Shown one piece after another: positions 1,224 through 42,384 of a stretch of DNA of 64,000 bases (position 1 is its first letter; every line of letters begins with the position of its first letter). Both the position numbers and the translations under genes were made by a program. The notes under the pieces are model-generated. The model ran no database searches. It saw only the letters and a list, made by a program, of their open reading frames with translations, and had not been told where the DNA came from. Source of the DNA: Stegostoma tigrinum (taxonomy: Eukaryota); NCBI RefSeq assembly GCF_030684315.1, contig NC_081363.1:86904184-86968183 (forward strand). Direction: 5' to 3'.

Positions 1224-1342
1224 AGAGATAGTAGGGACTGCAGATGCTGGAGAATCTGAGATAACAAGGTGTAGAGCAGGATGAACACAGCAGGCCAAGC
1301 AGCGTCAGAGGAGCAGGAAGGCTGATGTTTCGGGCCTAGACT
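1224..1342 (-). mobile_element. Penelope 3' end fragment nested in an old CR1
   Basis: agagatagtagggactgcagatgctggagaatc...gtttcgggcctagac is the reverse complement of the Penelope 3' UTR seen at 28730-28846. Confidence 0.75.
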
Positions 1343-1512
1343 CAATCTACTACACGTCCAAGATGAATCTTTTTCAGCACAGATTCTTTGAATCATTTAT
1401 CATCTACAAAAGAGGCTAGGTCCAAAAGGTACAAAATGAATCTTTGTACTCCAGTCATCTTGATATAAAGACTGCCAATTTTTTTTTTTTAGCTCTCTTG
1501 ATTATATTCTGC

Positions 1513-1653
1513 GACAGCAAGATCTGCAGAGTCAGAATCAATAGTGTGGAACAGAGGAATACGGCAGGATCCTGATGAAGCATATAAACCCAAAACACAG
1601 ACTTTCCTGCTCCTCTGATGCCTGAACTTCTGTATTCCTTCATCTCTATTCTT
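1513..1653. mobile_element. Older inverted Penelope 3' end with decayed HHR (ctgatgaag at 1572)
   Basis: TSD ttgatta(t/c)attctgc at 1498-1512 and 1654-1668; - piece followed by + piece. Confidence 0.65.
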
Positions 1654-2393
1654 TTGATTACATTCTGCACCTGTTCATGATCTTTTAATGATCTATGCAC
1701 CTGAACCCCAGGTCTTTTTGGACATCTGCTGTATTTAACTTGCCATCTAGAAAGTACTCTGATCTATCCTTTGAGTCCAAAATGGATAACCTCACACTTC
1801 CAGTGTCTGCCACAGATGTCTGTTCAATTAGTCTATCAATAATGCTTTGTAGTGTAATGCTATCATCTATGCTGCCTACAAGTCACCTAACTTTGTGTCA
1901 TCAGCAAATTTGGACAGATGACTCTCTCTGCCATTATCCATGTCATTAATAAATAATGTATACAAATAAGTCCCTAGCTCAGTTGTTCGTGAACTCCACT
2001 GGATACATCCTGCAAGTTTGACTACTGCACTCAGAACTTGAGAATACTTCCATTGGCATCCTACATACTTAAAACAAGTGTTGCTGTTGAGAGCCCTGTC
2101 AGAGTGTCTTTGAGTAGAGTTCCTTCACTGCTCATTTAGGTGCACTGTTCCATCTTATTTCAAATGGCCAAGGAACCAGTCTGTATTGCTCAAAATAAAA
2201 GACCAACTGATTTGGTTTTACTCTATTTGCATTGATATAGTATTTTCTACTTGGAGTCCTATAGCATGGAAACGGTCCTTCGGTTCAATTCATCCTCACT
2301 GACTAGACAATCAAATCGTTAGTAAATAATGTGAACATTCGAGGTCTTAACACAGTTTCTTGTGGAACATCACTGGTCAAATCATGTCAATTT

Positions 2394-2509
2394 ATAGAAC
2401 ATTACAGCACAGTACAGGCCCTTCGGCCCTCGATGTTGTGCCAACCTGTCATACCGATCTGAAGCCCATCTAACCTACACTGTTCCGTGTACGTCCATAT
2501 GCTTGTCCA
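2394..2509 (-). mobile_element. CR1 3' UTR fragment
   Basis: atagaacattacagcacagtacaggcccttcggccc; nearly identical to 8081-8200 and 30960-31080. Confidence 0.8.
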
Positions 2510-3248
2510 TTATTGAGTACCATTATCCTAACTTAGTGCCCTTATCAAAAGATAGCATAAAAGCACGGCTTGCGTGAACGTAAAGTATTCGCTCAAATTC
2601 TAGAAGAGGTTTGAATATTGAATATTTGGAAAAATTCATTAGAAAAATAGATTCTGAATAAATAAATGCTTGAGATGTGGCCTCATTACGTGCATGTGAA
2701 TGTTCAAGAATGGAAAGTAAACCTTTATTCTCTGCACAGATTGCATCTTTCAGAATATATTTAAAAATACTTTTAATATGAAAGATGCTCCCTCAAGTTA
2801 ATGGCAGAACCAGTGTAAAAGTTTGATTGTGTTAAGTAATTGATGTTATTATCACCTCCAGTTTTATGATTGGTAGTAATTGGTAGAGCTTTCCTATTGG
2901 CCTGTTGGTAATTGATATGCTGAATACCAGTCTGTGCTTCTTCAAATGTGTTAAAGTTAGCAGCTACCTTGAGTACTTTATTTATAATTGAAAACAAAGA
3001 TACAATTTGTGCCTGTCAGATCTGAAAAGTATTCTGTGCTGAATCTTCCATAGCATAACAACCAGCAGAGAGACTTCTTTTTTAAATTTTTAATAAAGAA
3101 CATTTTGAAACTGTCTTTCAAGTTATTGAGTTGCTCTGAAAAACGTTACACTTTTTCATTGACATTTGTTTGTACAATTGCTTTTCTTTATAAACAGTGA
3201 TAGTTTAAACTACTACTGGTACGCTGAGAGTGAACTTTTGTAATTTTA

Positions 3249-3371
3249 GAGATAGTAGGAACTGCCGATGTGGGAGAATCTGAGAACACGATGTGAAGCT
3301 GGATGAACACAGGCCAAGCAGCATCAGAGGAGCAGGAAAGCTGACATTTTGCGTCGAGGCCTTTCTTCAGT
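3249..3371 (-). mobile_element. Penelope 3' end, 5'-truncated at the HHR core
   Basis: 13-bp TSD ttttgtaatttta at 3236-3248 and 3374-3386. Ends in ttcttcag, the reverse complement of CTGAAGAA. Confidence 0.75.
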
Positions 3372-3694
3372 AATTTTGTAATTTTATACTGGTCTCTTTT
3401 TTTTTAATTAAAAACATGTTCTGTAGTGCATATAATAAATGAATAGTTAGGTTGATATCATTTTACTAAATTCAGCAGTTACCTTTTAGTACTGCCCAGC
3501 AATTAATTTCAGTTCATTGTTTCGTTCTTCTAACTCACTGAATCAAATTTTTTGTTTTGGTGCCAAATTCCTACTCTGCCTGCCACTTTGGGCCTTCAGA
3601 ACAAGTCTTGTGATATTAATTGTACGCCGAAAGAATCTCTCAATGTATGTGAATTTGTTTTTTTTGCACTGAGCAGCTGCATTAGCTTAAATTA

Positions 3695-3880
3695 CAAACA
3701 GATGACGTTGGAAGTACACAGCCTGTCAGTCAGCATCTGTTGAGAGAAAGAAAAGTTCAATATTTCAGGTCTGAAACATTAGCTATCATTTTCTCCCTCT
3801 TGGTGCTTGCTAATCAGCAGGGTATTTCCAGCACTTTTGTTTATGTTACAGATTTCTAACCATTTGCAGGATCTGGCTTT
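3695..3880. mobile_element. Old fold-back Penelope 3' end (family 2)
   Basis: Degenerate inverted arms centred on tttcagg/tctgaaa at ~3770; resembles 7593-7812. Confidence 0.5.
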
Positions 3881-4508
3881 CATATAACTGCAGTTTTATG
3901 GTTATCATGTGGGAAACAGAAACGTGGTTATGCCTAATGTTTCCGTGACCTTTCAAATAATGATATTTCCTTAATTTTTTCTATAATAACAAAGATTTTT
4001 CATTGTAACGCTCCCAGGCTTTGTTCTAAATAATGTTACAGTTTAATAACAACAGCACTTTGTATTTACATGTTTCTTTTTATTATGATAAACTTTCTGT
4101 GGTCTTTCAATGGAGTTTTACAGTGTCAAGTGTTTAAGAGCCATCTTCAAACAAAGAAGGAGTTTTGTTTTGTTTATGGGATGTGGCCATGCTGATAAAG
4201 CCAGGGTTACTACTCATCCCTGAATGCTAGCACATTCTCAAATACAAGTTACCTGCTTGCAATGCTGCATTCTTGGTGGTGTTAGGAGCAGTGAGGTTTG
4301 GTTGTAAGCAGCTAAGACCTAGCCTTAAAGGTGAAGGGAATAATTAAAACTAAGGATGTTCACATGAGCATAAATTTTGACGGTTGTGGTGTTGTAGGAG
4401 TTTAGAGATTGGGGAGAGGTTTGGCTATGAGGATTTTGAGAATGATGAGAATTTTAAAAGTGAAATATTGCTTAGCTAGAGGCAATACAGGTCAAGCAGC
4501 ATAATGGT

Positions 4509-4710
4509 AACAAAGTGTGGAGCTGAATGAACACAGCAGGCCAAGCAGCATCTTAGGAGCACAAAAGTTGACGTTCCGGGCCTTTTCTGATAGTCTAGGC
4601 CTGAAATGCCAACTTTTATGCTCGTAAGATGCTGCTTGCCTGCTGTGTTCATCCAGCTCCACACTTTGTCATCTTGGATTCTCCAGCATCTGCAGTTCCC
4701 ATTATCTCTA
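4509..4710. mobile_element. Short fold-back Penelope 3' end (decayed HHR at the turn)
   Basis: Inverted arms around ~4583-4596. TSD cagcataatggt at 4497-4508 and 4713-4724. Confidence 0.8.
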
Positions 4711-4854
4711 ACCAGCATAATGGTGATTAAATGGGACTTCATGAATCCATCAGCATTCATTTACGTCTGGAGTGTTTCATTTAATTTCAGGTGGAAAAAG
4801 CATCCCTTAGTGTTGACTGACAGTCTTGAAAGGTACCTTTTTTCAAAAAAAAAA

Positions 4855-4983
4855 GAACTGAAGAACTGTGGATGCTGGAATTCAGAACAAGAAGGGTCAC
4901 TGGACCTGAAATGTTAACTCTGCTTTCTCTCCACAGAAATTGCCAGACCTGCTGAGATTTTCCAGAAATTTCTGTTCTTGTTT
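4855..4983. mobile_element. Inverted Penelope 3' end (family 2)
   Basis: A - strand terminal piece (aagaactgtggatgctgg) joined to a + strand piece that starts at gaagggtcactggacctgaaatgtt (HHR remnant). Confidence 0.65.
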
Positions 4984-6076
4984 TTCAAAATCTGATGAAG
5001 TAATATTTCAATATTGTCTATAGTTCAGGCTGGCCTTTCGAGTTAGTTCTGGTGGTCTTTTAACTGGAAATAAATAATCAGCACAGCTCTCCAAGTACTA
5101 TTCTGTTAGTTGGAAATAAATGAGAGCTACACCAGGATTTCGAGGAGACCACACCCTCTTGTTTTTGAGATGCTAAATCAGAACTTCTCAAATATGTATT
5201 TTACCTTCAATCTCTGCATTATTCCTACAGGCCTACAAGGTCTAAATTGACCATATGAAGTGTTGGAAAGTGTAACAGTAAGAGCTGTTTCTGCATTTGT
5301 ATCTTCAGTGCTGCAGAATATTGAAAATTGTATGATGATATCATGTGGTCACTGGTCAGCTGATGGCTGGAGTTGATATAACTTGACCCTTTAAACTCAA
5401 TCTAAACAGCACCTACAGTGCAAAAAGTAGTGTGAATTGTTTCTAAACATCACTTAAGCATGGTTGCTTTGCATTATACTGCTTGAATAGATAAGGTAAG
5501 CTTGATTATTTAGTACATGTTATCAGTGGAATACTTCCACATCAAGCAATACTTGTCACCAGCAGAAATACTGATTGTGCTTTCATGAGAATGGCAAATT
5601 TAAAAGCAAAGTTTAATCAGATGAATATGGGTTTTTAAAAGTATTAAGAAATTAGTTATTTTTTGTACATTGTCCATCAAGAAAAACTGTGTTCATTGTA
5701 CCTTTTAGTAAAATTTGCATAAGTTGGTGAAAAAACAATAGTGAACTAATTGGTTGGAGTTCTTGAGTGAATATAATTAAAATAAATAGATTCTTCAAAA
5801 TGCTGAATTGAAATAATTAGGAAGTGCTGATCTCCATGTTTTCTCAATAAATTTCATAAATGCATGTAGATCACATTCCTAAAGATTTCGACTTGCTTAC
5901 ATGAGAAAATATTGTGCTGGACAAGGCCAGCTATTCTATCAAGCCTGTCTCACATTCATCATGGGTAGACCATCTTGGGCATTCCGTTGTTCGTATAATC
6001 TAGTAAAGGCCAACCTATTCTTTCTGAGGTGCTCTGCCCAAAACTGAGGGTGCAACGTAGTCACTGTCCTATGTTT

Positions 6077-6150
<74 letters not shown>
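6077..6150. repeat. (CT)n microsatellite
   Basis: About 36 CT units, seen directly. Confidence 0.97.
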
Positions 6151-6153
<3 letters not shown>

Positions 6154-7390
6154 GCCCTGTGCAGTGTTCTTTTTCACATAATAATTCAGATTCCTCTTGA
6201 ATGTATGATTGCAGAATGGCAGTACTGCTCCAAAAGGGGTCCCAGTAAGACTTTAAACAATGAAAACACCTCTTCCTACATTTAAAATTTTAGTGATTTC
6301 GTATATCTGAACACACAAATGGTCTTGGAAATTGTTTCTAGCCACTTGCCAGATGTGAAATATTTTGATTTGTCATCCTTGGATCCAAAGTGATGACTTT
6401 ATACTTTGCCACATTCTTTGAACTCCATTGAGCTCCATCTGTCACTGTTTTGATCACTCAGTTAATCTGTCAATCCCAATGTATTACCTTCTGCTCCCAT
6501 AACTTACTACGCATTTCAATTTAGTGTCATTTGCAAATTTGGATATGCAGCTCTCTATTCCTTTATTCAGGTTATGTACATATATGATGAAAGGCTTCAA
6601 ATCAGATTCTTGAAATGCCACTCAATCAGGATACTTATTTCACTACTCAGACTCCTACGTACTGACCAATTTGTCACTTTTATTAATATTCAGATATCAT
6701 GTTTAGAAAAATACTAATGAAGAATAGATGAGTCAATAATTGATGTAAATTTGAGTTTTGAAATAATGGAAATTTATTTAAGGTATCCATAAACAAGTGT
6801 CGCTTTTGTGCTTTATAGACCATAAGATAAAAGTTTCAAATGTAATTGATTCATTTAAAGAGTTTGCTAAGAAAATGGAAACTTTAACAGCTTGTACCTT
6901 TTGTGTAAATGTAGATTTCTTTGTGACGGTCCCTGTTAAACTGTTAGGCTCCTGTCTGATAACACATTGCATGACCCGCAACAAAACAACAAAAAAAAGG
7001 TTGTTTAACTAAAGTTTATCTGGCCTATTTGTCTGTCATTGGCAGAGGGAGAAGTTTCTGTAAATGTTACCTAATCTGAGGGGAATTTCATCCAGTTGTG
7101 TGATAGGTTAATGGCAGATTTTTCTAGTACCATGGAGACTACATAATATCAGTTGTAAAACAAGGTGATCTCCCATTCTTGAAGTTGATGTTTATTAGCC
7201 TATGGGCTCTGCTGCACAGTTTTATTGTTTGGTATAGAATCACTGCTACTGACTAATTTTCCCAAGAGTACACTCATTGAAAAATTGAGTTGAATGCTAC
7301 TGGATAGGACTTGTTAATTATTGCAAATTCCTTAGGGTGTGCACATTATAATTCAGCTGTGGAATATTCTCTCAAGTGGAATGCTGATGA

Positions 7391-7812
<422 letters not shown>

Positions 7813-8080
7813 TTTGGTTCATCTGGGTCATTTTAACACATTTTATTTTTATTTCAGATATGAATAGAAGTATTTATTGTACCATGGTTATCTTGTATTT
7901 CAACAGACATCCATAAGACTTAATTTTGCTTTGTACTTTTTCAGATAAAATTACTTTTATAATGAACAGAATTTCTTTGAGTTGTTGAAGTAATATTTGT
8001 TGTTTTCCAATGTCCTTTTACTTTGTGTATATATTCCATGTCATATCTAAAGCTTCCAAATTCTGTAATTTTCTGACTCC

Positions 8081-8673
8081 ATAGAACTTTACAGCACAGT
8101 ACAGGCCCTTCGGCCCTCAATGTTGTGCCGACCTGTCATACTGATCTCAAGCCCATCTAACCTACACTACTCCATGTACGTCCATATGCTTGTCCAATGA
8201 CAACTTAAATGTACCTAAAGTTGGCAAATCTACTACCGTTGCAGGCAAAGCGTTCCATTCCCTTACTACTCTGAGTAAAGAAACCACCTCCTGACATCTG
8301 TCCTATATCTTTCACCCCTCGATTTAAAGCTATGCCCCCTCGTGCTCGCCGTCACCATCCTAGGAAAAAGGCTCTCCCTATCCACCCTATCTAACCCTCT
8401 GATTATTTTATATGTTTCAATTAAGTCACCTCTCAATCTTCTCTCTAATGAAAACAGCCTCAAGTCCCTCAGCCTTTCCTCGTAAGACCTTCCCTCCATA
8501 CCAGGCAACATCCTAGTAAATCTCCTCTGCACCCTTTCCAAATCTTCCACATCCTTCTTATAATGCGGTGACCAGAACTATACGCAATACTCCAAGTGCG
8601 GCCGCACCAGAGTTTTGTACAGCTGCAGCATAACCTCTTGGTTCCGGAACTTGATCCCTCTATTAATAAAAGC
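8081..8673 (-). mobile_element. Young CR1 LINE 3' end
   Basis: ORF 8266..8550 LERVQRRFTRMLPGM...LRGDLIETYKI...TRGH, plus the 3' UTR. Confidence 0.92.
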
Positions 8674-9139
8674 ATGTTGGTTTGTATTTAATTATAAAAC
8701 ACATTGTTGCTATGACACAAGGTCATCTAGCTCAATTGTCTTTCACCTGGAGTCTAGAAATGAATCGGATTCATTGAAGTGACCTCAATAACATTACTCA
8801 AGTTAAAATTATACTGTCAATAGTCACTGTTTTTGATCCTTGCAACCAAAATTCTCCATGTATAAGAGGTCAATGCTGTGTATAGAATTCCATTTGGAAT
8901 ACCAGCAGAGATGACTTTGAGCAAATTCAGTTATCTGATTGTTTTTTGCAGTTAACACTATTTTGAACAGTCCTCCAGATGCTGCCTTAGAGACATCCTG
9001 ATTCCACTCCTATTTGTTTGTTTGTTTTCTGTTTCTTGTAGTACAACCTGTGCAGCCATACGTTTATACCTCTATCTGAGAAATTAGATAGCTGACTACC
9101 TATTTCTAACTAGCAGTTGGATTGGCTATACAGTGGAAA

Positions 9140-9740
9140 GATCAAATGCTTATCTCCTTTACTGTAAGGAAAATAATCCGTGTCTTTCTGGCATAACTTT
9201 GTAATTTAAAATCCTCCAGCTCTGGAACTATTCTGCTAAATCTCGTCAGTACCCCATCAAAGATTGCATCTAAAGTGTGGTGACCAGAACTGCTAAAAAT
9301 ACTCTAGTTTAGCATAAATAATTTCTGTCTTTGACCCAGAGTCTTTGTTTATGAAGCCAAATGCCCCATACGTTTTGCTGATCATTCTTTATTTATCACA
9401 TAACCTTCAACAGTCAATACACATGAACTTCCAAGTTGCTTTGTGCATAGAAGCTCTAAAGAATTGTACTCTTGATTTGATGTTCCTCTCCGTAACTTTT
9501 CCAACAAAAAGCATCACCCGGCAGTTGTCTACTAAAGTCCATCTGCCTACCTGTTATGCTGGCCTGTGTACATCCTGTTACAAGCAATTTGTATTATCCT
9601 AACTATATTTTGTCACTCTTCCACGTTTGGTATTGTCAGTAAGTTTTGAAACTTCGTTTCATGTTCCAAGATTTAAGTCATTCTTATCTAGAAAAAATGC
9701 ACCAGCCCTAGCATCGACTCTCTGGGAACACCACTCTGAA
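9140..9740 (-). mobile_element. Old CR1 ORF2 fragment
   Basis: - strand SGVPRESMLGL (RT GVPQGS motif) and a QFWSPH remnant. Confidence 0.65.
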
Positions 9741-10084
9741 TGCAAACATCTTGATAGCTATGGGTGATTTGAATGTAAAAGTTAGAGAAAGATGGGGAAA
9801 TGTAGTGGATGTTTATGGACCATGAATGAAGAACAATACAGGGCAGTGCCTTACCTCTGAGGAAAATAAAGCGATTATCTTCAAGCAACAGCCAAAATGA
9901 CTGTACACCTTGAAGAATTCTGATCATCAATGAGATGTACAAAAAATGTCCAAGCATTGACATCGATTTAACCTGCAGGTAATGAAAATAAAGATCAAGC
10001 TGAAAAATCTCAAAGACCTAGCTAACCAAAACAGACTGAAAGGGGAAAATAAAATAACAGCGTGGATGATGTTGATGTTGATGT

Positions 10085-10214
10085 TGATGTTTTGGGTCAG
10101 GACCCTTCTTCGGAAACTTTCCTGCTCCTCTGGTGCTGACTGGCCTGCTGTGTTCCTCCAGCTCCATACTGTGTTACCTTCTGGCTCCAGCATCTGCAAT
10201 TCTTACTGTCTCTG
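10085..10214. mobile_element. Inverted Penelope 3' end preceded by a (GATGTT)n run
   Basis: A - strand HHR remnant (gacccttcttcgg) joined to the + strand 3' UTR ...cagcatctgcaattcttactgtctct. Confidence 0.65.
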
Positions 10215-10989
10215 AAAGAGGAAAATATTTGAACATGGTGTAGAAGCAATGAGCAAGAGTGAAAATTAAGAAATAACCAACCAAGATCTTTAGCGAGGAG
10301 AAAACACAAAAAGACATTGAGAAAAATTAAAACAGTGCATGAAATGCACAGGAGCTGAGACTGTTCAGAGAGGAGCAAGCATCAAGAATGGATGATTGAT
10401 GAAATAGTTGATATGCAGAGAAAAGAAAATAGATTTAAGAACAATAAGGAAGAACGTAACAGTTGAAAGATGTGAAAAGAGTAACCATGGAGCAGCCATG
10501 GAAAACGATTGGGGAAACGTTGTAACATGAGAACAGTGCACAAGAAAGTCAATGTTCAAGGGTGAGAATGAAAGAATAACTCCAATAGTGTTATGTAAAA
10601 AACATGGAAGGTCTGTGTCTCTTTGGCAAAACAATGATAGAGGAACAAGGAGTGGAATAAGCCCAAGAACTGGTGATAATGAAGAGGGAAGTGAATTGGT
10701 ACCATGAGAGGGAAGACAAGGACCAGAGAAAGTAGTGGCACTGGTCAGTGCTGTGGTCCAAAAGATTGAGACAGTAGAATGCCTGAAATCCCCAAATGAT
10801 GTTAATATTGGGATATTGACAGACCTTTTGCAGCGTAGTTTACGAAACAGGATTCCTGTGTGAGGATTTTGTGCAGTCAGGGTTCATTTCGGACTTTTTG
10901 GTTGCTTTGGAAGCTGAGAGCTTGGAGCGAAAGACAAAAATAGAGTTGAGCCATGTTATTAAAATAACTTTAATAATTGCTTTTGAAAA

Positions 10990-11690
10990 CAGTGACCAGT
11001 CTCTCTGAGCAGATTTGGACAGCCATTCAGGCTAACAAGAAAGGAATAAGAGAACATCTTTGAGAGTGCTAATTGAAAGATTACAAAAGTGCAGATGCCT
11101 GGCTGTGTATGCTTTTATAGCCTGAGAAGGTATTGGATGGAGATTAGCATAAGAAAATAATGCAATGTTGAAGATAGAAATTGTTAAAGATGGATCATTG
11201 TGTTATGAGACCTAATAATGGCTTGTCAGACAGCTTAACAAGCAAAGGTGGAGTGTATCAGAGACGTATATGTCCTCTAAAGTATTTAATCTGTACATTG
11301 AAGCTATCGTCAGAGATAGGAAATCCTACCAGGTTGTAATGTGGGTTGAATGTTAACAACTTGATTTTCAGAGTTGATACAATGTAGAGCTGGAGGACCA
11401 CAGCAAGTCAGGCAGCATCAGAGGAGCAGGGAATCAACATTTCAGGTTAAAACCTTTCATCAGGATCTGACGCTGCTTGACCTGTGTTCCTCCACCTCCA
11501 CACTGTATTGACTCTGACAGAAGCATCTGCAGTTCTTGCTATTTCCTTGATTTTCACAGATGCCCCTGCACTGACTGACTGAGTCATAAGAGTTGGGATT
11601 TGTAAAACAAACCAAATCAAGGAATGAGGAGCATGGATCAAGAATGTGAAGAGACAACCAAGACACAATGAAGACAAACTGAGGCCTGAC
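10990..11690 (+). mobile_element. Very decayed RTE-like RT fragment (interrupted by Penelope 11374-11545)
   Basis: Remnants resembling QFGFR..KG.RE.IF..R.LIER and GV.Q....S...FNLYIE. Confidence 0.4.
11374..11545. mobile_element. Fold-back Penelope 3' end
   Basis: TSD cttgattttca(g/c)ag at 11360-11373 and 11546-11559. The turn is at ctttcatcag, the reverse complement of CTGATGAAAG. Confidence 0.72.
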
Positions 11691-11699
11691 ACTGGAAGT

Positions 11700-12220
11700 G
11701 AGAATTGAAGTAAATGGACACATCCTGAAGTTTTATTTTAGTCGATGTACAAGAAAGCATCCCATCTGGATGCTTCAGAGCATGGTGTGGCGACTGCTCT
11801 CCCCAAGATCGCAAGAAACCAGAGACAGTCATGAACACAGCCCAATCCATCTCACAAACCAGCCTTCCATCCAATGACTGTATCCTCTCTGCCTCAGGAA
11901 AGCAACCAAGCTAACCCAAGACCCCTCCCATCTTGGTTATACCCTCTTCCATCTTCTTCTGTTGGGCATAAGATGTAAAATTTTGAATACATGTACAAAT
12001 AGATTCAAGAATAGCTTCCGTTCTGTTATTAAACTTCTGTATTGATCTCTGAAATGTTAATTCTGATCTGTCTGTCTGCCTGCACCTTTCTCTGTGGCTG
12101 TAACACTATATTCTGTACTCTGTTCTACTACCCTGATGCACCTTGTATGGTATGATCTGCCTGTACACATTTCATTGTATCCTGGTACATGTGACAACAC
12201 TAAATCAATCAGTCAATCAA
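11700..12220 (+). mobile_element. Rex1/Babar LINE 3' end
   Basis: RCT.ESI.SGC..AW.G.CS.QDRKK...V.NTAQSISQTSLPS...DPSH.GY.LF.LL..G; terminal (TCAA)n. Confidence 0.75.
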
Positions 12221-12491
12221 CCAGCATATCCTGAAGTAAATGGACGCTTCCTGAACCAAACGGACATGCTTTGGGCAGATCGCCACAGATAATGAAAGAT
12301 GGGCTGTTGAAACCTATAGAAATTTGAAATGACCAATAAGTGAATTAATATCTCTCTGTCGCTGCATTCTCTAAAAGCACTTCTTCCAAAAAGGTGTCTT
12401 TCAATGTAGAAATTCAATATTAGATTGCTTCTTGCTCGTCTCCATCACAAAGCCAAACTTTTCATGATGCACTGATCACTCTCTCACCCAT

Positions 12492-12588
12492 TTCGATGAA
12501 GGTTCATCAAACTTGAAATGTTAGCTCTGCTCTCTATCCACAGATGTTACCAGACCTGAGTTTTACTGGCAATTTCGGTTTTTGCTTC
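12492..12588 (+). mobile_element. Penelope 3' end fragment (family 2, decayed HHR)
   Basis: gatgaaggttcatcaaacttgaaatgttagctctg...cagatgttaccagacctgag matches the 4890-4980 piece. Confidence 0.55.
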
Positions 12589-13432
12589 TTACCCAAATGT
12601 TCAGCCACAGTCACTCAGTCCATTTGGTCGACATCATTCTCTGACATCAGGTTTTGCATCACCTGCTTTCTAGTTTGACTGAGAGCATGTTGATTAAGCA
12701 CAGTTTAGAAATCCCTTTCTCTTGTCCTTTTTGTTAACTAATCAAATCTAAAGTCTAAGTAAAGTCTCCCCATGTTACCACTCTATAGTTCACACACAAC
12801 TCTTGGCTTCTCTGCTGATTTATTCCTTAATCTTCCTCTGTGGCTCAAAATATTCCAAATCCTCTGGTCTTGCCTTTTCACTTCTCACCTCTAATCGAAT
12901 GGATTCTTATGTCTCCAGAACATCGGGCTTTTTATCTCTACCATGTTTACCCTCATTAGTACTGTGAATCTACCTCCTTTTTTTTTCTCCTCCTCCATCT
13001 TCGCTGAACACCTTATTCTTGTACATTTAAGTAGCGAGTCCTCAAATTTCCTGCCAAGCTCAGGTCAATTGCAAGCTGTCTACTGCCACTGGAGTTGAGA
13101 TTGTTTAATCCTGAAATGAATTTGCTTGCTTTACCCATTTACTTTGCCTGAAAAATCAAGACTTTTTTAAAGTGCATAAATCTGAATGAGAACTTGAAGC
13201 CTATTTTCAGACAATTAATAGGCCAGAGGAAAGCATCAGGTCTGGATATTAAGAGGGGAAAAAAAATGACTGAAATGGCAGGAGATGGTAATTGGAATTA
13301 TTGACCTACTTGTTTTTTATTTTTGTGTAAGAAATGACTATTATGCTGGGAAATTTCTAAAAAAAAAACGCATCTGCATAGAGCCCATATCACAATTAGA
13401 AATATTATTTATCATCGTTCTCTTAAAACTAA

Positions 13433-13672
<240 letters not shown>

Positions 13673-13934
13673 TGATGTTCAGGCACTAATTAGGTTGGAC
13701 TAATTCCTTAAACCCTCATCAAATTGTGTAAAATCAGAGAAGACTGTTGGAATGCTTTCACAGTAAAGTAAGACTTCCTCTTGTATCATGCCTTTCATGA
13801 TATGAGGGTGTTTCCAAGTCCTTTACAGATATTGAGGTGAAAATTTTGCTGTACAGTCACTATTGTAGGGAATGCAACAACAAGTTTCTATAAACTGCAA
13901 TTGGTGGTGATGATGATGACCAAGTAAATCACCT

Positions 13935-13997
13935 CTGTTCATCCAGCTTCACACTTTGTTATCTTGGATTCTCCAGCATCTGCAGTTCCCATTATCC
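13935..13997 (+). mobile_element. Very short Penelope 3' terminus
   Basis: TSD tgaccaagtaa at 13917-13927 and 14002-14012. Confidence 0.7.
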
Positions 13998-25999: not shown

Positions 26000-27235
26000 A
26001 AGAAATAGGAGCAGGACTAAGCTATTCAGTCTGTGTTTGTTCAGCCATTCAAAATAAATCACAACTCATATGGTTATGTGTTTAACTCCACTTTGCTTCC
26101 TGTCCCCATGACCACTGACTTCTTTGTCAGTTAGTTGTGCCTTGAATGTGTATTCAATGACCCAAGTCTCCACTGCTTTTTGACAAACAACATTCCAAAG
26201 GGTATCAACCTCCTGAGAAGAAATTCTTCCTCATTTCCATCTTTAATGGATTGTCCCTTGTTTTATTCTATGCCCCTGGTTCTAGATTTCCTTGAGAGGA
26301 AATATCCTCTCCATCTCTACGCTGTCAAACATTTCAAAATTCTGTTTTCCACTAAGATCAGCATTCTTACTTTAAACCCCAACAATTATACCCCAATTAA
26401 ACCCCAACAATTTAGGCAGTCCTGCTCAAATATTTGGGGCAAACCCCAAATCAACCCAGTGATCCTTCTCCGACTACTTCCAATGGAAGTATTTCTCTCC
26501 TTTTTATCCATGTTATGAATATAGATCATAAATAGTTGAAATTCTAACACTGACCCCCATGGCATACTGTCATACAGTGGCCAATCCTTGATCCTTGCTG
26601 ATACATCACCTCCCAACAGTTTCAGCTCTTTTGCAATAACCTTTTAAGTGGCAACTTCTGGGATGCTTTATTGATAGCCAATTACTCTACATCTACTAGT
26701 TCCCTGTTATCCACCCTGTTACATTCTCAAAGAGCTCAAGTAAATTTGACAAGAACTCTTGGTCCTTTCACAAAACCATGTTGACCCTATTGATTGATTT
26801 TATGATTGTTAACATTATGGTACCACTTCCTGGATGTTGACATTTTCCTAATGACAGATGTCAGACTTAACTGAATTTTCTTCTTTGTTTTTTTATGTCC
26901 ATTTCCATTTGATCAAAAGTGTTACTTTTGCAGCTTTCCAATCCACTGGGGCATTTCTAGAATGTAGGAAATTTTTAAAGATTGCAATTAATGGATAGGT
27001 TATCCCTGAAACCACTTCCTTTGAGACTCCAAAAGCAGAAGTTTGATGTGAGAGACTTATCATTTGTCAGTTTTCCTAGTTGTTGCGATTGTTTTAAGTT
27101 GCTGTTTCGGTTTTGAATGCTGGTTTTCTACAATTCTTAAGATGCTTTTTGCACCACTTACTGTGAAAATAATATACTTGTTCAAAATCTCTGCCATTTC
27201 CCTGTTTACCATTATCCATTTCTCAGTCTTAGACT
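26000..27235 (-). mobile_element. Old CR1 ORF2 with internal deletions
   Basis: 3' UTR gtaagaaataggagcagg; remnants of QHGFVKG and PWGSVL. Confidence 0.7.
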
Positions 27236-27641
27236 CTAAAGTAGCACTTTTACAATAAGCTCGTTTTGTGAGGAGGGATTGGGTATTTATCCAGCTGCAA
27301 GAAACAGTTTAACATTTGCTTAAAATGCCTTAACAAAGGTGAACAAATCATCAGGGTTCGCAGTCAATATGACCCGTGCTGCCGATTCTGCAAACTATGC
27401 TGGTGATGATTCCTTCCCTTTCCAGCCTTCTGATTTCTGCTACTTTTGTACGCAAGGCAAATGGCACTGGGCATACCCTGCAGAATCACGGAATTGCTCC
27501 TGGTAAGGTGGCCTTGGCTCATTTTGATAGCCTGTAAACCACCTCAAAGCTTCTAGGTATTTAATTAGGACTTCTTGAAGATAATAAAATGTGAGGCTGG
27601 ATGAACACAGCAGGCCAAGCAGCATCTCAGGAGCACAAAAG

Positions 27642-27673
27642 CTGACGTTTCGGGCCTAGACCCTTCATCAGAG
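27642..27673 (-). ncRNA. Minimal hammerhead ribozyme motif (mirror copy in the left arm)
   Basis: Exact reverse complement of 28717-28748. Confidence 0.7.
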
Positions 27674-28716
27674 AGGGGGATGGGGGGAGGGAACTGGAAT
27701 AAATAGGGAGAGAGGGGGAGGCGGACCGAAGATGGAGAGTAAAGAAGATAGGTGGGGAGGTAGGGAGGGGATAGGTCAGTCCAGGGAAGACGGACAGGTC
27801 AAGGAGGTGGGATGAGGTTAGTAGGTAGCTTGGGGTGGGAGGAAGGGATGGGTGAGAGGAAGAGCCGGTTAGGGAGGCAGAGACAGGTTGGACTGGTTTT
27901 GGGATGCAGTGGGTGGGGGGGAAGAGCTGTGCTGGTTGTTTGGTGCAGTGGGGGGAGGGGATGAACTGGGCTGGTTTAGGGATGCAGTAGGGGAAGGGGA
28001 GATTTTGAAACTGGTGAAGTCCACATTGATACCATATGGCTGCAGGGTTCCCAGGCGGAATATGAGTTGCTGTTCCTGCAACCTTCGGGTGGCATCATTG
28101 TGGCAGTGCAGGAGGCCCATGATGGACATGTCATCAAGAGAATGGGAGGGGGAGTGGAAATGGTTTGCGACTGGGAGGTGCAGTTGTTTGTTGCGAACTG
28201 AGCAGAGGTGTTCTGCAAAGCGGTCCCCAAGCCTCCGCTTGGTTTCCCCACTGCACTGCCACAATGATGCCACCCGAAGGTTGCAGGAACAGCAACTCAT
28301 ATTCCGCCTGGGAACCCTGCAGCCATATGGTATCAATGTGGACTTCACCAGTTTCAAAATCTCCCCTTCCCCTACTGCATCCCTAAACCAGCCCAGTTCA
28401 TCCCCTCCCCCCACTGCACCAAACAACCAGCACAGCTCTTCCCCCCCCACCCACTGCATCCCAAAACCAGTCCAACCTGTCTCTGCCTCCCTAACCGGCT
28501 CTTCCTCTCACCCATCCCTTCCTCCCACCCCAAGCCGCACCCCCAGCTACCTACTAACCTCATCCCACCTCCTTGACCTGTCCGTCTTCCCTGGACTGAC
28601 CTATCCCCTCCCTACCTCCCCACCTACACCCTCTCCACCTATCTTCTTTACTCTCCATCTTCGGTCCGCCTCCCCCTCTCTCCCTATTTATTCCAGTTCC
28701 CTCCCCCCATCCCCCT

Positions 28717-28748
28717 CTCTGATGAAGGGTCTAGGCCCGAAACGTCAG
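28717..28748 (+). ncRNA. Minimal type-I hammerhead ribozyme motif (Penelope-type)
   Basis: CUGAUGA-A-GGG(UCUAGG)CCC-GAAA-CGUC^AG: complete core, palindromic ACGU stem III, GUC triplet. Stem I is only about 2 bp. Confidence 0.7.
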
Positions 28749-29336
28749 CTTTTGTGCTCCTGAGATGCTGCTTGGCCTGCTGTGTTCATCCAGCCTCACA
28801 TTTTATTATCTTGGAGTCTCCAGCATCTGCAGTTCCCATTATCTCTCTCTCCTTGAAGATAGCTGTTTTATGAATTTTTCTTAACCAATTTTGCTCCGTT
28901 GAGCTTGGACCGGAGCGTTTAACTACAGTTGGTGGTAACTGCATCAACTGCTTCTCATAGCACACAGGAACTGTGGTTGTAGCCTTAATTTGTAATGGTT
29001 CCCTGGTATATGTTCTTGGTCTTGCTGAGAACTTGTGCAAATTTAAGGGTTGGAGTCCAGAGCAAATCTTGTTAAAGGGCTGGTTCTGCAATCGCTGATC
29101 AATTAGCTGTGCTGGTATTAACCTCCATTAGAACTGGGTGACCATTTAACCAGACTTTTATTTTGGTTTGGATTTGGATATTGCTAAGCAATTTAAGTGT
29201 TCCAAATCTCATGTAGGTGGACTTTCCGGGATGTGCGCACTCCTGGATTCCTGGCATTGAGCTTCCTTGTTCAAGTCAGGCCTCATAGGACTCCTTTTGA
29301 GTCCATACTGGCCATACAGTGGTGGTACTACAGTAC

Positions 29337-30244
29337 AGATAGGTGGACAGGCAGGTAATACTGAGGAGGTGGGGAAGCTGCAGAAAGATTTAGACAGTTT
29401 AGGAGAGTGGTCCAGGAAATGGCTGATGAAATTCAATGTGAGTAAATGTGAGGTTTTGCACTTTGGAAAAAAGAATACAGGCATGGACTATTTTCTAAAC
29501 GGTGAGAAAATTCGCAAATCAGAAGTGCAAAGGGATCTGAAAGTGTTGGTCCAGGATTCTCTAAAGGTTAACTTGCAGGTAGAGTCCATAATTAAGAAAG
29601 TGCATGTAATGTTGTAGTTTATCTCGAGGGTTGGAATATAAAAGCAGTGATGTGCTTCTGAGGCTTTATAAAGCTCTAATCAGGCCCCATTTAGAATACT
29701 GTGTCCAATTTTGGGCCCCACACCTCAGGAAGGACATACTAGCCCTGGAGCGTGTCCAGCGGAGATTCACACGGATGATCCCTGGAATGGTAGCTTTAAC
29801 ATATGATGAACGGCTAAGGATCCTGGGATCGTACTTGTTAGAGTTCAGAAGGTTGAGGGGAGATCTAATAGAAACTTACAAGATAATGTATGGTTTAGAA
29901 GGGGTGGACACTAGGAAGTTGTTTCCATTAGGCGGAGAGACTAGGACCCGTGGGCACAGCCTTAAAATTAGAGGGGGTAAATTTAAAACTGAAATGAGAC
30001 AACATTTCTTCAGCCAGAGTGGTGGGCTTGTGGGGTTCATTGCCGCAGAGTGCAGTGGAGGCCGGGACGTTGGATGCCTTCAAGGTAGAGATCGACAAAT
30101 TCTTGATCTCAAAAGGAATCATGGGCTACGGGGAGAGTGCAGGGAAGTGGTGCTGAAATGCCCATCAGCCATGATTTAAATGGCAGAGTGGACTTGATGG
30201 GCCGAATGGCCTGCCTTCTACTCCTATGTCTTATGGTCTTATGG
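29337..30244 (+). mobile_element. Young CR1 3' end
   Basis: ORFs 29267..29617 and 29631..30179 (LQKDLD.L.EW..KWLMKFN; RPHLEYCVQFWAP); terminal tcttatgg repeats. Confidence 0.93.
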
Positions 30245-30357
30245 CTTTTTGGCCCACAGTCTGAACATTTTAGCCATTTTGGCCAAGGCTTAGCTTTGTT
30301 TTAGGGTTTTGCTGTGGGCTGATTGAGGGTCTCTGTATATGTCCTGGATATGTCCTG

Positions 30358-30512
30358 ATGTAGAGGTGCCAGTGTTGGACTGGGGTGAACAAAGCCAGAA
30401 GTCTCACATCACCAGTTTATTTGAAACCACCTGATGAAGGAGCACCGCTCTGAAAGCTTGTGATTTCAAACTAACCTGTTGGACTATAATCTGGTGGTGT
30501 ATGACTTCTGAA
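30358..30512. mobile_element. Inverted Penelope 3' end (family 3) with HHR
   Basis: TSD ggatatgtc(c/t)tg at 30346-30357 and 30515-30526. A - piece (cagaagtctcacatcaccag) faces a + piece (ctggtggtgtatgacttctg). Confidence 0.72.
30428..30462 (+). ncRNA. Minimal hammerhead ribozyme motif (family 3)
   Basis: cac-CUGAUGA-A-GGAGC(ACC)GCUCU-GAAA-GCUU-gug: stem II GGAGC/GCUCU, palindromic AGCU stem III, 3-bp stem I. Confidence 0.6.
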
Positions 30513-30954
30513 CAGGATATGTCTTGCATGAGATTGTGTGCTTGTCTACGCTCAAGTGGTGTTCCCCAAACTCAGTTGAACAGGAGTGCGTCTACTATCA
30601 TTGGGTTACCCTGCAGCTTACGTGCTGCATTTTATAATGGCAAACCAACTGTAGTGTCTGTTTGATGTCCAGTTGGGCTTCAGCCATGTAGGTGCTTTGT
30701 ATGGTTATTCATTCAGGGTTAACCCAAAATTATATGCGTCTTAACCTCGTTAAAAATCCCGACATAGGTTCTCCTGGTTCATGAACTGGCGAGTAAAACC
30801 AATGGTATCTTAGAATTAGAGGATGCTTGGAGTTATAATATTTCTTAACTAAATCCATCAGCTCTTGAAAGGTTTTAGTATCTGGACCCTCAGGGAAAGT
30901 TAGGCTCTGAATAACTGAAAATGCTGCAAGTCTGCAAGCAGTCAGAAGAATTAC

Positions 30955-31123
30955 TTAGAATGTAGAACATTACAGCACAGAACAGGCCCTTCGGCCCTCG
31001 ATGTTGTGCCGACCAGTCATACTGATCTTAAGCCCATCTAACCTACACTATTCCATGTACGCCCATATGCTTGTCCAATGATGACTTAAATGTACCTAAA
31101 GTTGGCGAATCTACTACCATTGC
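30955..31123 (-). mobile_element. CR1 3' UTR fragment
   Basis: Nearly identical to 8081-8243. Confidence 0.85.
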
Positions 31124-41462: not shown

Positions 41463-42334
41463 TATGCACTAGGGAAGTTTCGTGTTAAACACAGAAAGTA
41501 GTAGTGGCTGAAATCTGCTGCCAGGGAAGGTGGTAGAAGCAGATGTGATAGCCAAGTTTAAGAGGAATTTAGACAGATGTGAACAGGCAGATGGGATTAG
41601 TTTGGAGTGTCATCATGGTCAGTGCACGCGTGGTGGGCCGAAGCGTGTGTTCTTGTGTGCTTGCTTTTATATTGTTTTATCTGATGTCTTGATGATAACG
41701 CTTAAAGTGAGTGTCACACCATGAGATTACGGATTGTAGTTCTAATGTTGCTGATTGCTCACATGTCCATCTTTGAGCTGTTGAATCTGATCTCAGCCTA
41801 TCTTATTTAACACAGTAGAGGTTGCCCTCAGCGTGAAGGTGACACTTCAACCCCACAAGGACTGTTTGAAAATCAATCCTACCAGTGTTATGTCTACGTT
41901 CGGTTAGGGTTAGGAAGGTAATCCCAGCCTGTCCTTATAACTCAATCCCTCCATTCTGAGCAACATCCTGGTTAGGGGTCAGACAATGTAGGTGTTTCCT
42001 CCTTGTGAGGCCCCTCATCACTTGTTGCAGGTCCAGTCTGGCAGATATGCCCCACAGACCTCAACTATCTCAGGGCCCTTTCAGTCCTTCTTCCAATGAT
42101 GTTGAAGGTAGAGAAGTACTGATGTCTCAATTGAAGTTGGCAGTGCAGTAGGTTGTTGACAGCGAGAGATTTACTTCTGGTTTGACTTGGTGTTGGGAGA
42201 CTGAGAATTCTCGGGGCAAAGCCCTAATGACTTTAGTATACCACTGTCCAGGTCTGTTCTGGTGGTTGGACAAGGCTTATCAAGTGATGATAAAAGAGAC
42301 ATTGCTGTAAGTTAACATGTACTGAATATGACTT

Positions 42335-42384
42335 TACACCTTATTATCTCAGATTCTCCAGCATCTGCAGTTCCTACTATCTCT
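42335..42384 (+). mobile_element. Very short Penelope 3' terminus
   Basis: TSD ctgaa(t/c)atgact at 42322-42333 and 42383-42394. Confidence 0.65.

Follow-up and report, generated by a model that had tools for sequence, protein, structure and literature searches.

The window analysed here, a stretch of 64,000 nucleotides of the 3.2-Gb Stegostoma tigrinum genome (contig NC_081363.1; G000:C12:86904184-86968183), carries a series of short, often inverted insertions that are the 3′ ends of Neptune-type Penelope-like elements (PLEs), which encode a reverse transcriptase (RT) and a GIY-YIG domain. The 5′ ends of these copies pile up at a fixed position, here called the wall, which lies 4-5 nt upstream of the core of a hammerhead ribozyme motif. 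We consider it probable, with a good deal of reserve, that the wall is the transcription start of the element and that the short insertions are run-off cDNAs resembling retroviral ‘strong-stop’ products, joined head-to-head or to the target. Throughout, element coordinates refer to the sense strand with 0 as the C of the hammerhead core CUGAnGA, and statements about the literature apply to the accessible parts of the cited papers.

A genome query with a long head-to-head pair from the window (27578-28846) retrieved young copies, up to 99% alike, that contain an open reading frame (ORF; family A). This single ORF encodes an RT with a YIDD motif, then a C-x4-C-x2-C linker and then a C-terminal GIY-YIG domain, as in endonuclease-encoding (EN+) PLEs; the catalytic motifs were recognized by eye, and at locus L068 the Pfam matches to RVT_1 (E=2.5e-5) and GIY-YIG (E=0.0015) were both weaker than the Pfam curated cut-offs. 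A Pfam scan of two ORFs of the window itself returned no domain, and the linkage of arms to an ORF was established in family A only. The assignment to Neptune rests on the linker, which fits the CX2-5CxxC motif between RT and endonuclease that marks Neptune PLEs but is common to Nematis too (PMC8557442). Locus L137 shows the 5′ end of a unit, in which the hammerhead region is followed by the tail, a short leader and an ORF with its ATG at about +167, and the pseudo long terminal repeat (pseudo-LTR) stands in partial tandem, its tail running into the 5′ region of the ORF; at locus L123 the 5′ end of the element is absent. An optional tail of 30-40 bp, an inverted 5′-truncated copy and target-site duplications (TSDs) of variable length, likewise typical of EN+ PLEs, were also found, bearing out the proposal of an earlier note on this DNA that the insertions are Penelope-like and retro-derived. 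At least 39 loci at 99% identity carry the 5′ part of the ORF, and family A is therefore young.

A minimal type I hammerhead, as defined for PLEs (PMC4209133), fits all 12 of the core-bearing references (CUGAnGA and GAAA, a bulged base before helix II and an NUH site). Helix II has 3-5 bp and differs in sequence among families A, B and C; helix I has 4-5 bp in B and C2 and just 2 bp in A1, and the palindrome that would form helix III of a dimer measures 6 nt in B and C and 4 nt in A. An Rfam scan of the window matched no hammerhead model (it gave two sub-threshold microRNA (miRNA) hairpin matches and two weak others), and self-cleavage is here a prediction from the sequence motif. The landmarks of the element within the long pair are as follows.

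28685..28691, + strand: TATA-like heptamer at -34, unique in the 150 nt upstream of the core (family A)
28715..28718, + strand: wall (-4..-1), the putative transcription start, in A1 with a TCT-type initiator; it doubles as helix I's 5′ strand
28719..28746, + strand: minimal type I hammerhead (CUGAUGA, 5-bp helix II, GAAA, CGUC), cleavage predicted after 28746
28811..28846, + strand: tail between two fixed 3′ ends (~+93 and ~+127), read as two RT start sites (PMC11167929)

An unbiased sample was drawn by requesting 80 stretches of 10 kb at fixed round coordinates, of which 6 did not exist, leaving 74 (740 kb, including 10,200 N). Family references were built by script. With the window counted in, 377 arms were found; of those lying outside it, 257 retained their 3′ end. 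The main test was restricted to the 177 with a known upstream reference (145 of family A, 32 of family B) and left out 80 (44 of G, 15 of E2, 13 of C, which is all that this sample holds of family C, 7 of F and 1 of D). PLE-derived arms, with a few low-complexity false matches included, made up ~8.7% of the bases in the sampled stretches.

In family A, 45 of the 145 arms end between -6 and +6, giving 45 ends over 1096 nt at risk, or 41 per kb, against about 5 and 3 per kb on either side (33 ends over 5759 nt at +7..+60, p=7e-19; 13 over 4563 nt at -100..-7, p=2e-21). In narrower intervals the rates per kb are 4.8 at +32..+60, 6.2 at +25..+31, 5.1 at +7..+24, 3.6 at -26..-7 and 2.8 at -100..-7. 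Family B shows the same excess (14 ends over 217 nt at risk at -6..+6; p=4e-7 and 9e-4). When ends were planted uniformly in simulation, 92 planted ends of family A were recovered as 92, producing no false peak, and 52 of family B as 70, a 1.35-fold excess that is smaller than the one observed. Moreover, the flanks of 56 single arms near the hammerhead have no sequence in common, so the peak does not stem from an unrepresented upstream variant. Thus the enrichment of breakpoints at the hammerhead that the earlier note had suspected is real, and it recurs as a break throughout the genome (see below).

This wall is one-sided. In family A the interval -6..-1 holds 30 ends over 423 nt and -26..-7 holds 4 over 1102 nt, with a graded slope on the 3′ side. 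Its position, -4/-5, is neither the cleavage site nor the 3′ foot of the structure. Among arms reaching +6, it stops 15 of 45 tailed and 30 of 58 tail-less ones, and since these differ in length by ~35 nt, the wall is tied to sequence rather than to length. It is a tendency and not absolute, 42 of the 145 family A arms ending 3′ of +6, and both arms of the mini pairs stop there in 10 of 41 cases, one arm in 18 and neither in 13. Stop rates of individual subfamilies carry a bias, since long arms were given to the longest reference, and no test was based on them.

Evidence from further copies agrees with this position. Contigs of three runs, X11 and X8 from one sample and X1 from another organism, were aligned to 28260-28847, and among the listed loose ends long unlike flanks begin at 28718 in 699 (X11) and 478 (X8) contigs, at 28811 in 629 and 406, and at 28846 in 560 and 394. 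A break at 28718 was present in X1 as well (30 contigs), X1 and X2 being contigs of presumed RNA that cannot show a transcription start. In a genome search with family B, 31 of 39 non-self matches span the query, while all of the other 8 start at -5..-1 and none at -18..-6. Among ORF-continuing copies, 8 of the 11 main matches that start inside the query begin at -8..+3, and the other 3 at +33..+38. Finally, 23 young long copies were taken in listed order, skipping the query's own locus and three copies with a start visible at +45..+49: 4 stop at -4..+5 and 1 near -30, so that 4 of the 5 ends inside the fetched stretch fall at the wall. Young long copies starting at about +45 to +49 are seen at L137:476, G000:C1:112153381, C28:38485723 and C2:139875209; this cluster may be an ascertainment effect, as the query began at +45.

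The wall coincides with promoter-like motifs, for which TATA, initiator (Inr) and TCT definitions were taken from general knowledge. A1, A2 and B have one TATA-like site each in the 150 nt upstream, at -33 to -35, and 29-31 nt downstream of this box an initiator places +1 at -4 or -5 (an Inr in A2 and B, a TCT motif in A1); family D has an Inr at this place as well. The arrangement of a core promoter, TATA some 30 nt upstream of an Inr or TCT motif, is thus found in A1, A2, B and also C2; in one B copy with a short deletion the TATA-like site lies at -30, 26 nt before the initiator. Subfamily C2 allows the initiator to be told apart from the ribozyme. Here the TATA motif stands at -39 and the A of an Inr-like TCACT (with one mismatch to YYANWYY) at -8, both 4 nt further upstream, while helix I ends at -5; the initiator at -8 had been noted before the genome was searched with C2. 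This search gave 39 non-self matches. In 31 of them the start lies at query positions 1-8, where long copies also begin, and in the remaining 8 it lies at -10 (three), -9 (two), -8, -7 and -2, so that 7 of 8 fall at -10..-7 and the wall is shifted along with the motifs; two of the short matches have an inverted partner directly adjoining. In simulation the share expected at -10..-7 was 0.83-0.86 for a wall at -8/-9 and 0.10-0.16 for one at -4/-5. The C2 wall follows the initiator and not helix I, which counts against a structural stop. Promoter motifs have precedent in this part of PLEs, as Penelope transcripts of Drosophila virilis start inside the pseudo-LTR (PMC2377424) and a TATA and Inr-like motif has been noted in the pseudo-LTR of a rotifer PLE (PMC8557442, PMC3846280, PMC2377424).

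Several observations weigh against a transcription start at the wall. In family A, 57 of 145 arms end upstream of -6 or leave the stretch, and 18 of the 23 young long copies run on beyond -40; such copies pass the wall, and the run-off model therefore needs longer transcripts or strand transfer. The motifs are degenerate: in family A, 150 nt contain 1-5 matches of Inr type and as many as 7 of TCT type, and the TATA-like box of this family has one mismatch to TATAWAW. Family D has an Inr with no TATA match. An extra G, as would derive from a cap, was seen in 7 of 18 cases (p=0.14). The C2 comparison consists of 8 score-ranked matches judged by start coordinates without flanks, three of which, those at -10, may be long variants, leaving 4 of 5, and the window's own C copy, of another subfamily than C2, ends at about -4. 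Lastly, the D. virilis Penelope promoter is TATA-less and starts well upstream of the ribozyme (PMC2377424, PMC4209133); a start at the ribozyme is therefore not a general layout.

The structure of the head-to-head pairs indicates how the arms were made. Most pairs are minis of ~200 bp that have no ORF. Among 47 pairs with intact outer ends, 42 have exactly one tailed arm, 4 have none and 1 has two. The tail-less arm reaches further 5′ in 26 pairs and the tailed arm in 11, with 5 ties (p=0.02), and in 4 of 52 pairs the tailed arm stops approximately where the tail-less arm starts, a pattern that priming of both on a single RNA would produce. The junctions vary between a 10-nt overlap and a 31-nt filler, with gap sizes alike at the wall and elsewhere. 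TSDs of 9-18 bp flank 27 of 50 pairs versus 10 of 300 random controls, and are 67% A+T. No pair among those sampled was found to combine arms of clearly different subfamilies. Among 86 pairs no identical junction was found: three combinations of coordinates recur, but one of them comes from a single locus retrieved two times, and in the other two the letters at the junction differ. Since no junction recurs, the pairs are one-off products and not miniature inverted-repeat transposable elements (MITEs), and the repeated de novo formation proposed earlier stands. Long pairs turn at any point, and inversion is therefore a general property for which the hammerhead is not needed. For PAc, a Poseidon element of Anolis, it has been reported that both target strands are cut and extended, that two start sites bound the tail and that hammerhead mutants insert normally (PMC11167929).

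According to the model, a TATA and initiator promoter in the pseudo-LTR would start the RNA 4-5 nt upstream of the core, and the ribozyme would form the first 35 nt of the transcript. The protein would nick both target strands 9-18 bp apart, as the biochemistry of PAc suggests, and two cDNAs would be primed at ~+93 and ~+127, where the two fixed ends lie. When primed near the RNA 5′ end, these cDNAs would run off after ~97 or 131 nt, with some dropping off earlier. Joining of the two cDNA ends by microhomology or filler would generate a hairpin with one tailed and one tail-less arm; alternatively, joining of one cDNA to the target would generate a single arm. On this view the ribozyme would have no active part in placing the turn, which would coincide with the hammerhead simply as the point where the RNA begins.

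The earlier note had instead made the hammerhead, as a structure or as a dimer of it, responsible for stalling RT or folding the cDNA back. In a narrower form of this scheme, a folded or protein-bound hammerhead, or a dimer of two RNAs, would cause RT to halt or let go where helix I has its 5′ limit. Dimer cleavage has been described (PMC4209133; review PMC6765202) and the PAc hammerhead is protein-assisted (PMC11167929). The wall does fall on helix I's 5′ end in B and A2, and in the young family 3′ copies and ORF-linked 5′ copies stop about equally often, as a pause site would give (4 of 33 for the former, an underestimate, as long arms were assigned to that reference, versus 4 of 23 for the latter). 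Structured RNA is expected to stop RT at the 3′ foot of the structure. The end rates are flat over +7..+60 and jump only at the far 5′ edge; A1, with its 2-bp helix I, still has a wall (20 ends over 723 nt); the upstream RNA is weakly paired in family A (0.11-0.25); and in C2 the wall goes with the initiator. Together with the promoter-like TATA and initiator at the wall, these points make a helix I pause unlikely, and the stalling or fold-back by the hammerhead proposed in the note is not supported. Fold-back of a single cDNA, or self-priming of an antisense transcript at a palindrome (the latter suggested in PMC3846280), fits the head-to-head geometry, the many short junction overlaps and some near-palindromic wall junctions. 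A folded-back copy cannot gain a tail, however, and the tailed arm should then reach furthest, whereas the tail-less arm does so in 26 of the 37 untied pairs; TSD-flanked single arms share the wall, and junction gaps span -10 to +31, so that we hold this scheme to be very improbable.

Hammerhead self-cleavage could supply an RNA 5′ end at which RT runs off. Just 3′ of the cleavage site family A has a weak post hoc shoulder, 14 ends at +28..+41 where the 14-nt bins to its two sides have 7 each (p=0.048; with E2 added, 18 versus 7 and 7, p=0.006, likewise post hoc), 3 of the 11 ORF-linked matches start at +33..+38, and one arm of the pair at 10085 begins at +28. Yet the interval containing the cleavage site, +25..+31, has no peak (5 ends over 809 nt, p=0.38), the family B shoulder is not significant (p=0.20) and the main wall lies 32 nt upstream. 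As the main cause, self-cleavage is refuted, in keeping with the earlier note, and it is at most a minor source of ends; we find it highly improbable as the explanation of the wall. A bias of cutting or joining (element endonuclease, host nuclease, splicing, or microhomology with A/T-rich targets) would draw on the A+T-rich TSDs, on the ATTT at the A2 wall, PAc preferring ATT (PMC11167929), and on the AG at -4/-3 in B, the intron in D. virilis ending at helix I (PMC4209133). Against this, a more A/T-rich tract at -34 shows no peak, A1a has a wall at CTCT, AG is absent from the family A wall, the 56 single-arm flanks have no common upstream exon, and a long match to upstream element sequence occurs in just 1 of 139 wall flanks; we rate such a bias as distinctly improbable. 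Finally, hairpin shape and fixed outer ends could suggest that the pairs are DNA-transposon MITEs or descend from a small set of master hairpins, an option whose probability we regard as practically negligible: the outer ends are unequal by the ~35-nt tail, junctions and TSD lengths vary as described above, and the arms are continuous with the RT/GIY-YIG ORF. The equal terminal inverted repeats, fixed TSD length and single amplified structure of MITEs were not found.

A transcription start at the wall could be taken one step further, to a tentative version that we think somewhat doubtful, in which the pseudo-LTR is rebuilt as retroviruses rebuild their LTRs, by transfer of strong-stop cDNA to the RNA 3′ end. 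The 97- or 131-nt strong-stop product would move to the identical 3′ stretch and extend into the TATA-bearing 3′ untranslated region and the ORF; a second arrival at the start might lead to another transfer, yielding a partial tandem with the promoter restored. RT would start only at the junction of pseudo-LTR and ORF near the RNA 5′ end, because PAc needs 172 nt of ORF beyond both starts and the post-tail sequence is unique to the 5′ copy. The same wall in short and ORF-linked copies and the seamless passage of 18 of 23 long copies are compatible with strand transfer. Read-through multi-unit transcripts would fit these observations as well. Tandems of two units that, judged by coordinates, each begin at the wall are also compatible with transfer (G000:C10:82218265-82218634, C22:55278418-55278787 and C1:177224076-177224403, starting at -1/-1, -2/-2 and -8/-9), as is the copy at L031:1967-2115, which jumps from -4 to -615 of the same element on the same strand.

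The insertions of the window and one arm beyond the segment described in the earlier note are listed here; head-to-head pairs occupy both strands.

1224..1341, - strand: family A single tailed arm, +10..+127; TSD not found
1513..1649, both strands: old family A (E2-type) head-to-head pair, + arm from 0, - arm near +46; 19-bp direct repeat with 2 mismatches
3248..3374, - strand: family A2 single tailed arm, -4..+127, precisely at the wall; 13-bp TSD
3695..3860, both strands: old family B-like pair, turn +17/+21, outer ends approximate; TSD not found
4508..4709, both strands: family A1 pair, tail-less +14..+89 (-), tailed -6..+127 (+); 15-bp TSD, 1 mismatch
4855..4983, both strands: family B pair, tailed +88..+128 (-), tail-less +3..+97 (+); 10-bp TSD
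7592..7808, both strands: family B pair, tail-less -3..+97 (-), tailed +12..+127 (+); 10-bp TSD, 1 mismatch
10052..10213, both strands: family A2 pair (10085), degenerate - arm to -3, tailed + arm from +28; 16-bp TSD, 1 mismatch
11368..11545, both strands: family A (E2-type) pair, tail-less 0..+96 (-), tailed +42..+121 (+); 11-bp TSD
12492..12611, + strand: family B-like single tailed arm, -2..+117, ending at the wall
13933..13996, + strand: family A1 single arm, +61..+124; 15-bp TSD; a counter-example, stopping short of the hammerhead
16574..16692, both strands: family A1 pair, tailed +94..+127 (-), tail-less +7..+90 (+); 17-bp TSD
21077..21282, both strands: young family A1 pair, tail-less +14..+88 (-), tailed -5..+127 (+); 14-bp TSD, 3-nt microhomology at the turn
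23235..23332, - strand: family A2 single tail-less arm, -1..+96
27578..28846, both strands: young long head-to-head pair, tail-less -608..+93 (-), tailed -466..+127 (+); 13-bp TSD, 1 mismatch
30366..30511, both strands: family C pair, tailed +55..+109 (-), tail-less ~-4 to +80 or beyond (+); 12-bp TSD, 1 mismatch
42332..42384, + strand: family A2 single tailed arm, +75..+127; 12-bp TSD

All ten inverted insertions and three single arms of the earlier note are present, and they sort into three groups, A, B and C. Eight pairs came from automatic pairing (4508, 4855, 7592, 10083, 11368, 16577, 21077 and 30366), and the old pairs at 1513 and 3695 were recovered by local alignment only. The note had described TSDs of 12-17 bp in seven of the ten pairs; seven are indeed flanked, but by repeats of 11-19 bp, some with 1-2 mismatches, while those of 4855 and 7592 measure 10 bp and none was found at 3695. 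Its placement of the inner boundary at the hammerhead holds for one arm per pair, the further-reaching arms ending at 0, +17, -6, +3, -3, -3, 0, +7, -5 and about -4; the ends of the other arm are scattered from +12 to +94. Missing from its list were the 1.27-kb pair at 27578-28846, the single arms from +61 (13933) and +75 (42332) and the wall-ending arm at 12492. The long pair includes part of the GIY-YIG coding region and turns at -608/-466, distant from the hammerhead. At 4855 the tailed arm stops near the start of the tail-less arm, and at 16574..16692 the stop of the one equals the start of the other. The + arm at 10085 starts at +28, the predicted cleavage site; the left arm of this pair (10052-10090) is degenerate, with a GATGTT unit repeated ~4 times.

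It is usual for PLEs to have inverted, 5′-truncated copies that are tailed at one end (PMC8557442, PMC3846280, PMC2377424). The EN+ PLEs of these papers resemble the elements described here in their RT with C-terminal GIY-YIG, pseudo-LTR, inverted arm, tail at one end only, variable TSD and promoter in the pseudo-LTR; they differ in that the pairs here are mostly ORF-less minis of ~200 bp, and a fixed 5′ wall goes unreported in the accessible parts of those papers. Head-to-head junctions in rotifer PLEs have been attributed to antisense self-priming (PMC3846280), and beyond tandem formation the copying mechanism of PLEs has been described as not obvious (PMC2377424). PAc shares the two RT starts bounding the tail, the cutting and extension of both strands and a dispensable cleavage, but belongs to the Poseidon clade and its ORF starts inside the hammerhead (PMC11167929), whereas here the ATG lies ~167 nt downstream; a map of genomic 5′ truncation points is not given in the accessible parts of the PAc paper. 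The minimal hammerheads of metazoan PLEs agree with those described here in their core, in the bulged base that precedes helix II, in a short helix I and in palindromic positions 15.2-16.2 (PMC4209133). Most of them are solitary, some, noted in Schistosoma, standing on opposite strands 100-700 bp apart, and cleavage followed by circularization was proposed; in the present copies most ends lie 32 nt upstream of the cleavage site. Non-LTR retrozymes (bioRxiv 10.64898/2026.07.22.740005) are similarly non-autonomous, hammerhead-bearing PLE derivatives but are head-to-tail tandems amplified as units, whereas the window copies are one-off head-to-head insertions or single arms. Head-to-tail hammerhead units are found at separate loci of the genome: retrozyme-like arrays of hammerhead, tail and ORF start occur at L128:6750-8434 (period ~440 bp), G000:C11:34441065-34447227 (~315), C18:66777663-66778547 (~536 bp), C4:72971425-72972168 (~422) and C38:44006969-44007775 (~311), some with an inversion in the middle.

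Two better-known processes offer further comparisons. In L1 twin priming both target strands prime and an inverted junction with microhomology results, as here, but there the internal position at which the second primer enters varies and the two arms cover separate stretches, whereas the PLE arms have fixed starts and copy the same stretch. Retroviral strong-stop synthesis likewise involves priming near the RNA 5′ end, run-off at the start and a copied stretch that is repeated at the 3′ end; in the PLE case the primer would be nicked chromosomal DNA, with no transfer RNA or integrase, and the run-off product itself would be integrated. Our literature search, which apart from the cited papers covered listings and the openings of abstracts, with most subscription papers outside its reach, did not turn up any account of a wall of 5′ ends on the hammerhead's edge, of a match between wall and core promoter or of strong-stop products in PLEs. 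Inverted Penelope copies are thus already known, and the wall appears to be new. Present in very many copies, it provides a quantifiable genomic readout of where the template ends, ties the two start sites seen in vitro to the architecture of the hairpins, speaks against the view that template ends arise mainly from hammerhead cleavage and makes the strand-transfer model simply testable in vitro. If strand transfer is true, the minis would be failed transfers and a fossil record of an obligatory step. With 41 hairpins in 0.73 Mb, or ~56 per Mb, the genome would hold ~180,000 if the sample is typical, and in annotation they could be mistaken for MITEs or miRNA precursors.

Hairpins of the window at 4531-4647 and 7600-7770 gave the Rfam miRNA precursor matches below the gathering threshold. 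Three + strand stretches (7384-7493, 13457-13598 and 17894-18003) are exon-like, with GT donor ends and consecutive-looking parts of a protein kinase domain, presumably akin to tau-tubulin kinase, and the insertions therefore sit in introns; intronic hairpins of this sort could give double-stranded RNA. Repeated fragments of another family, by eye like a long interspersed nuclear element (LINE), lie at 2390-2520, 8080-8630 and 30960-31120, and a longer LINE-like fragment, also recognized by eye, spans 29330-30245.

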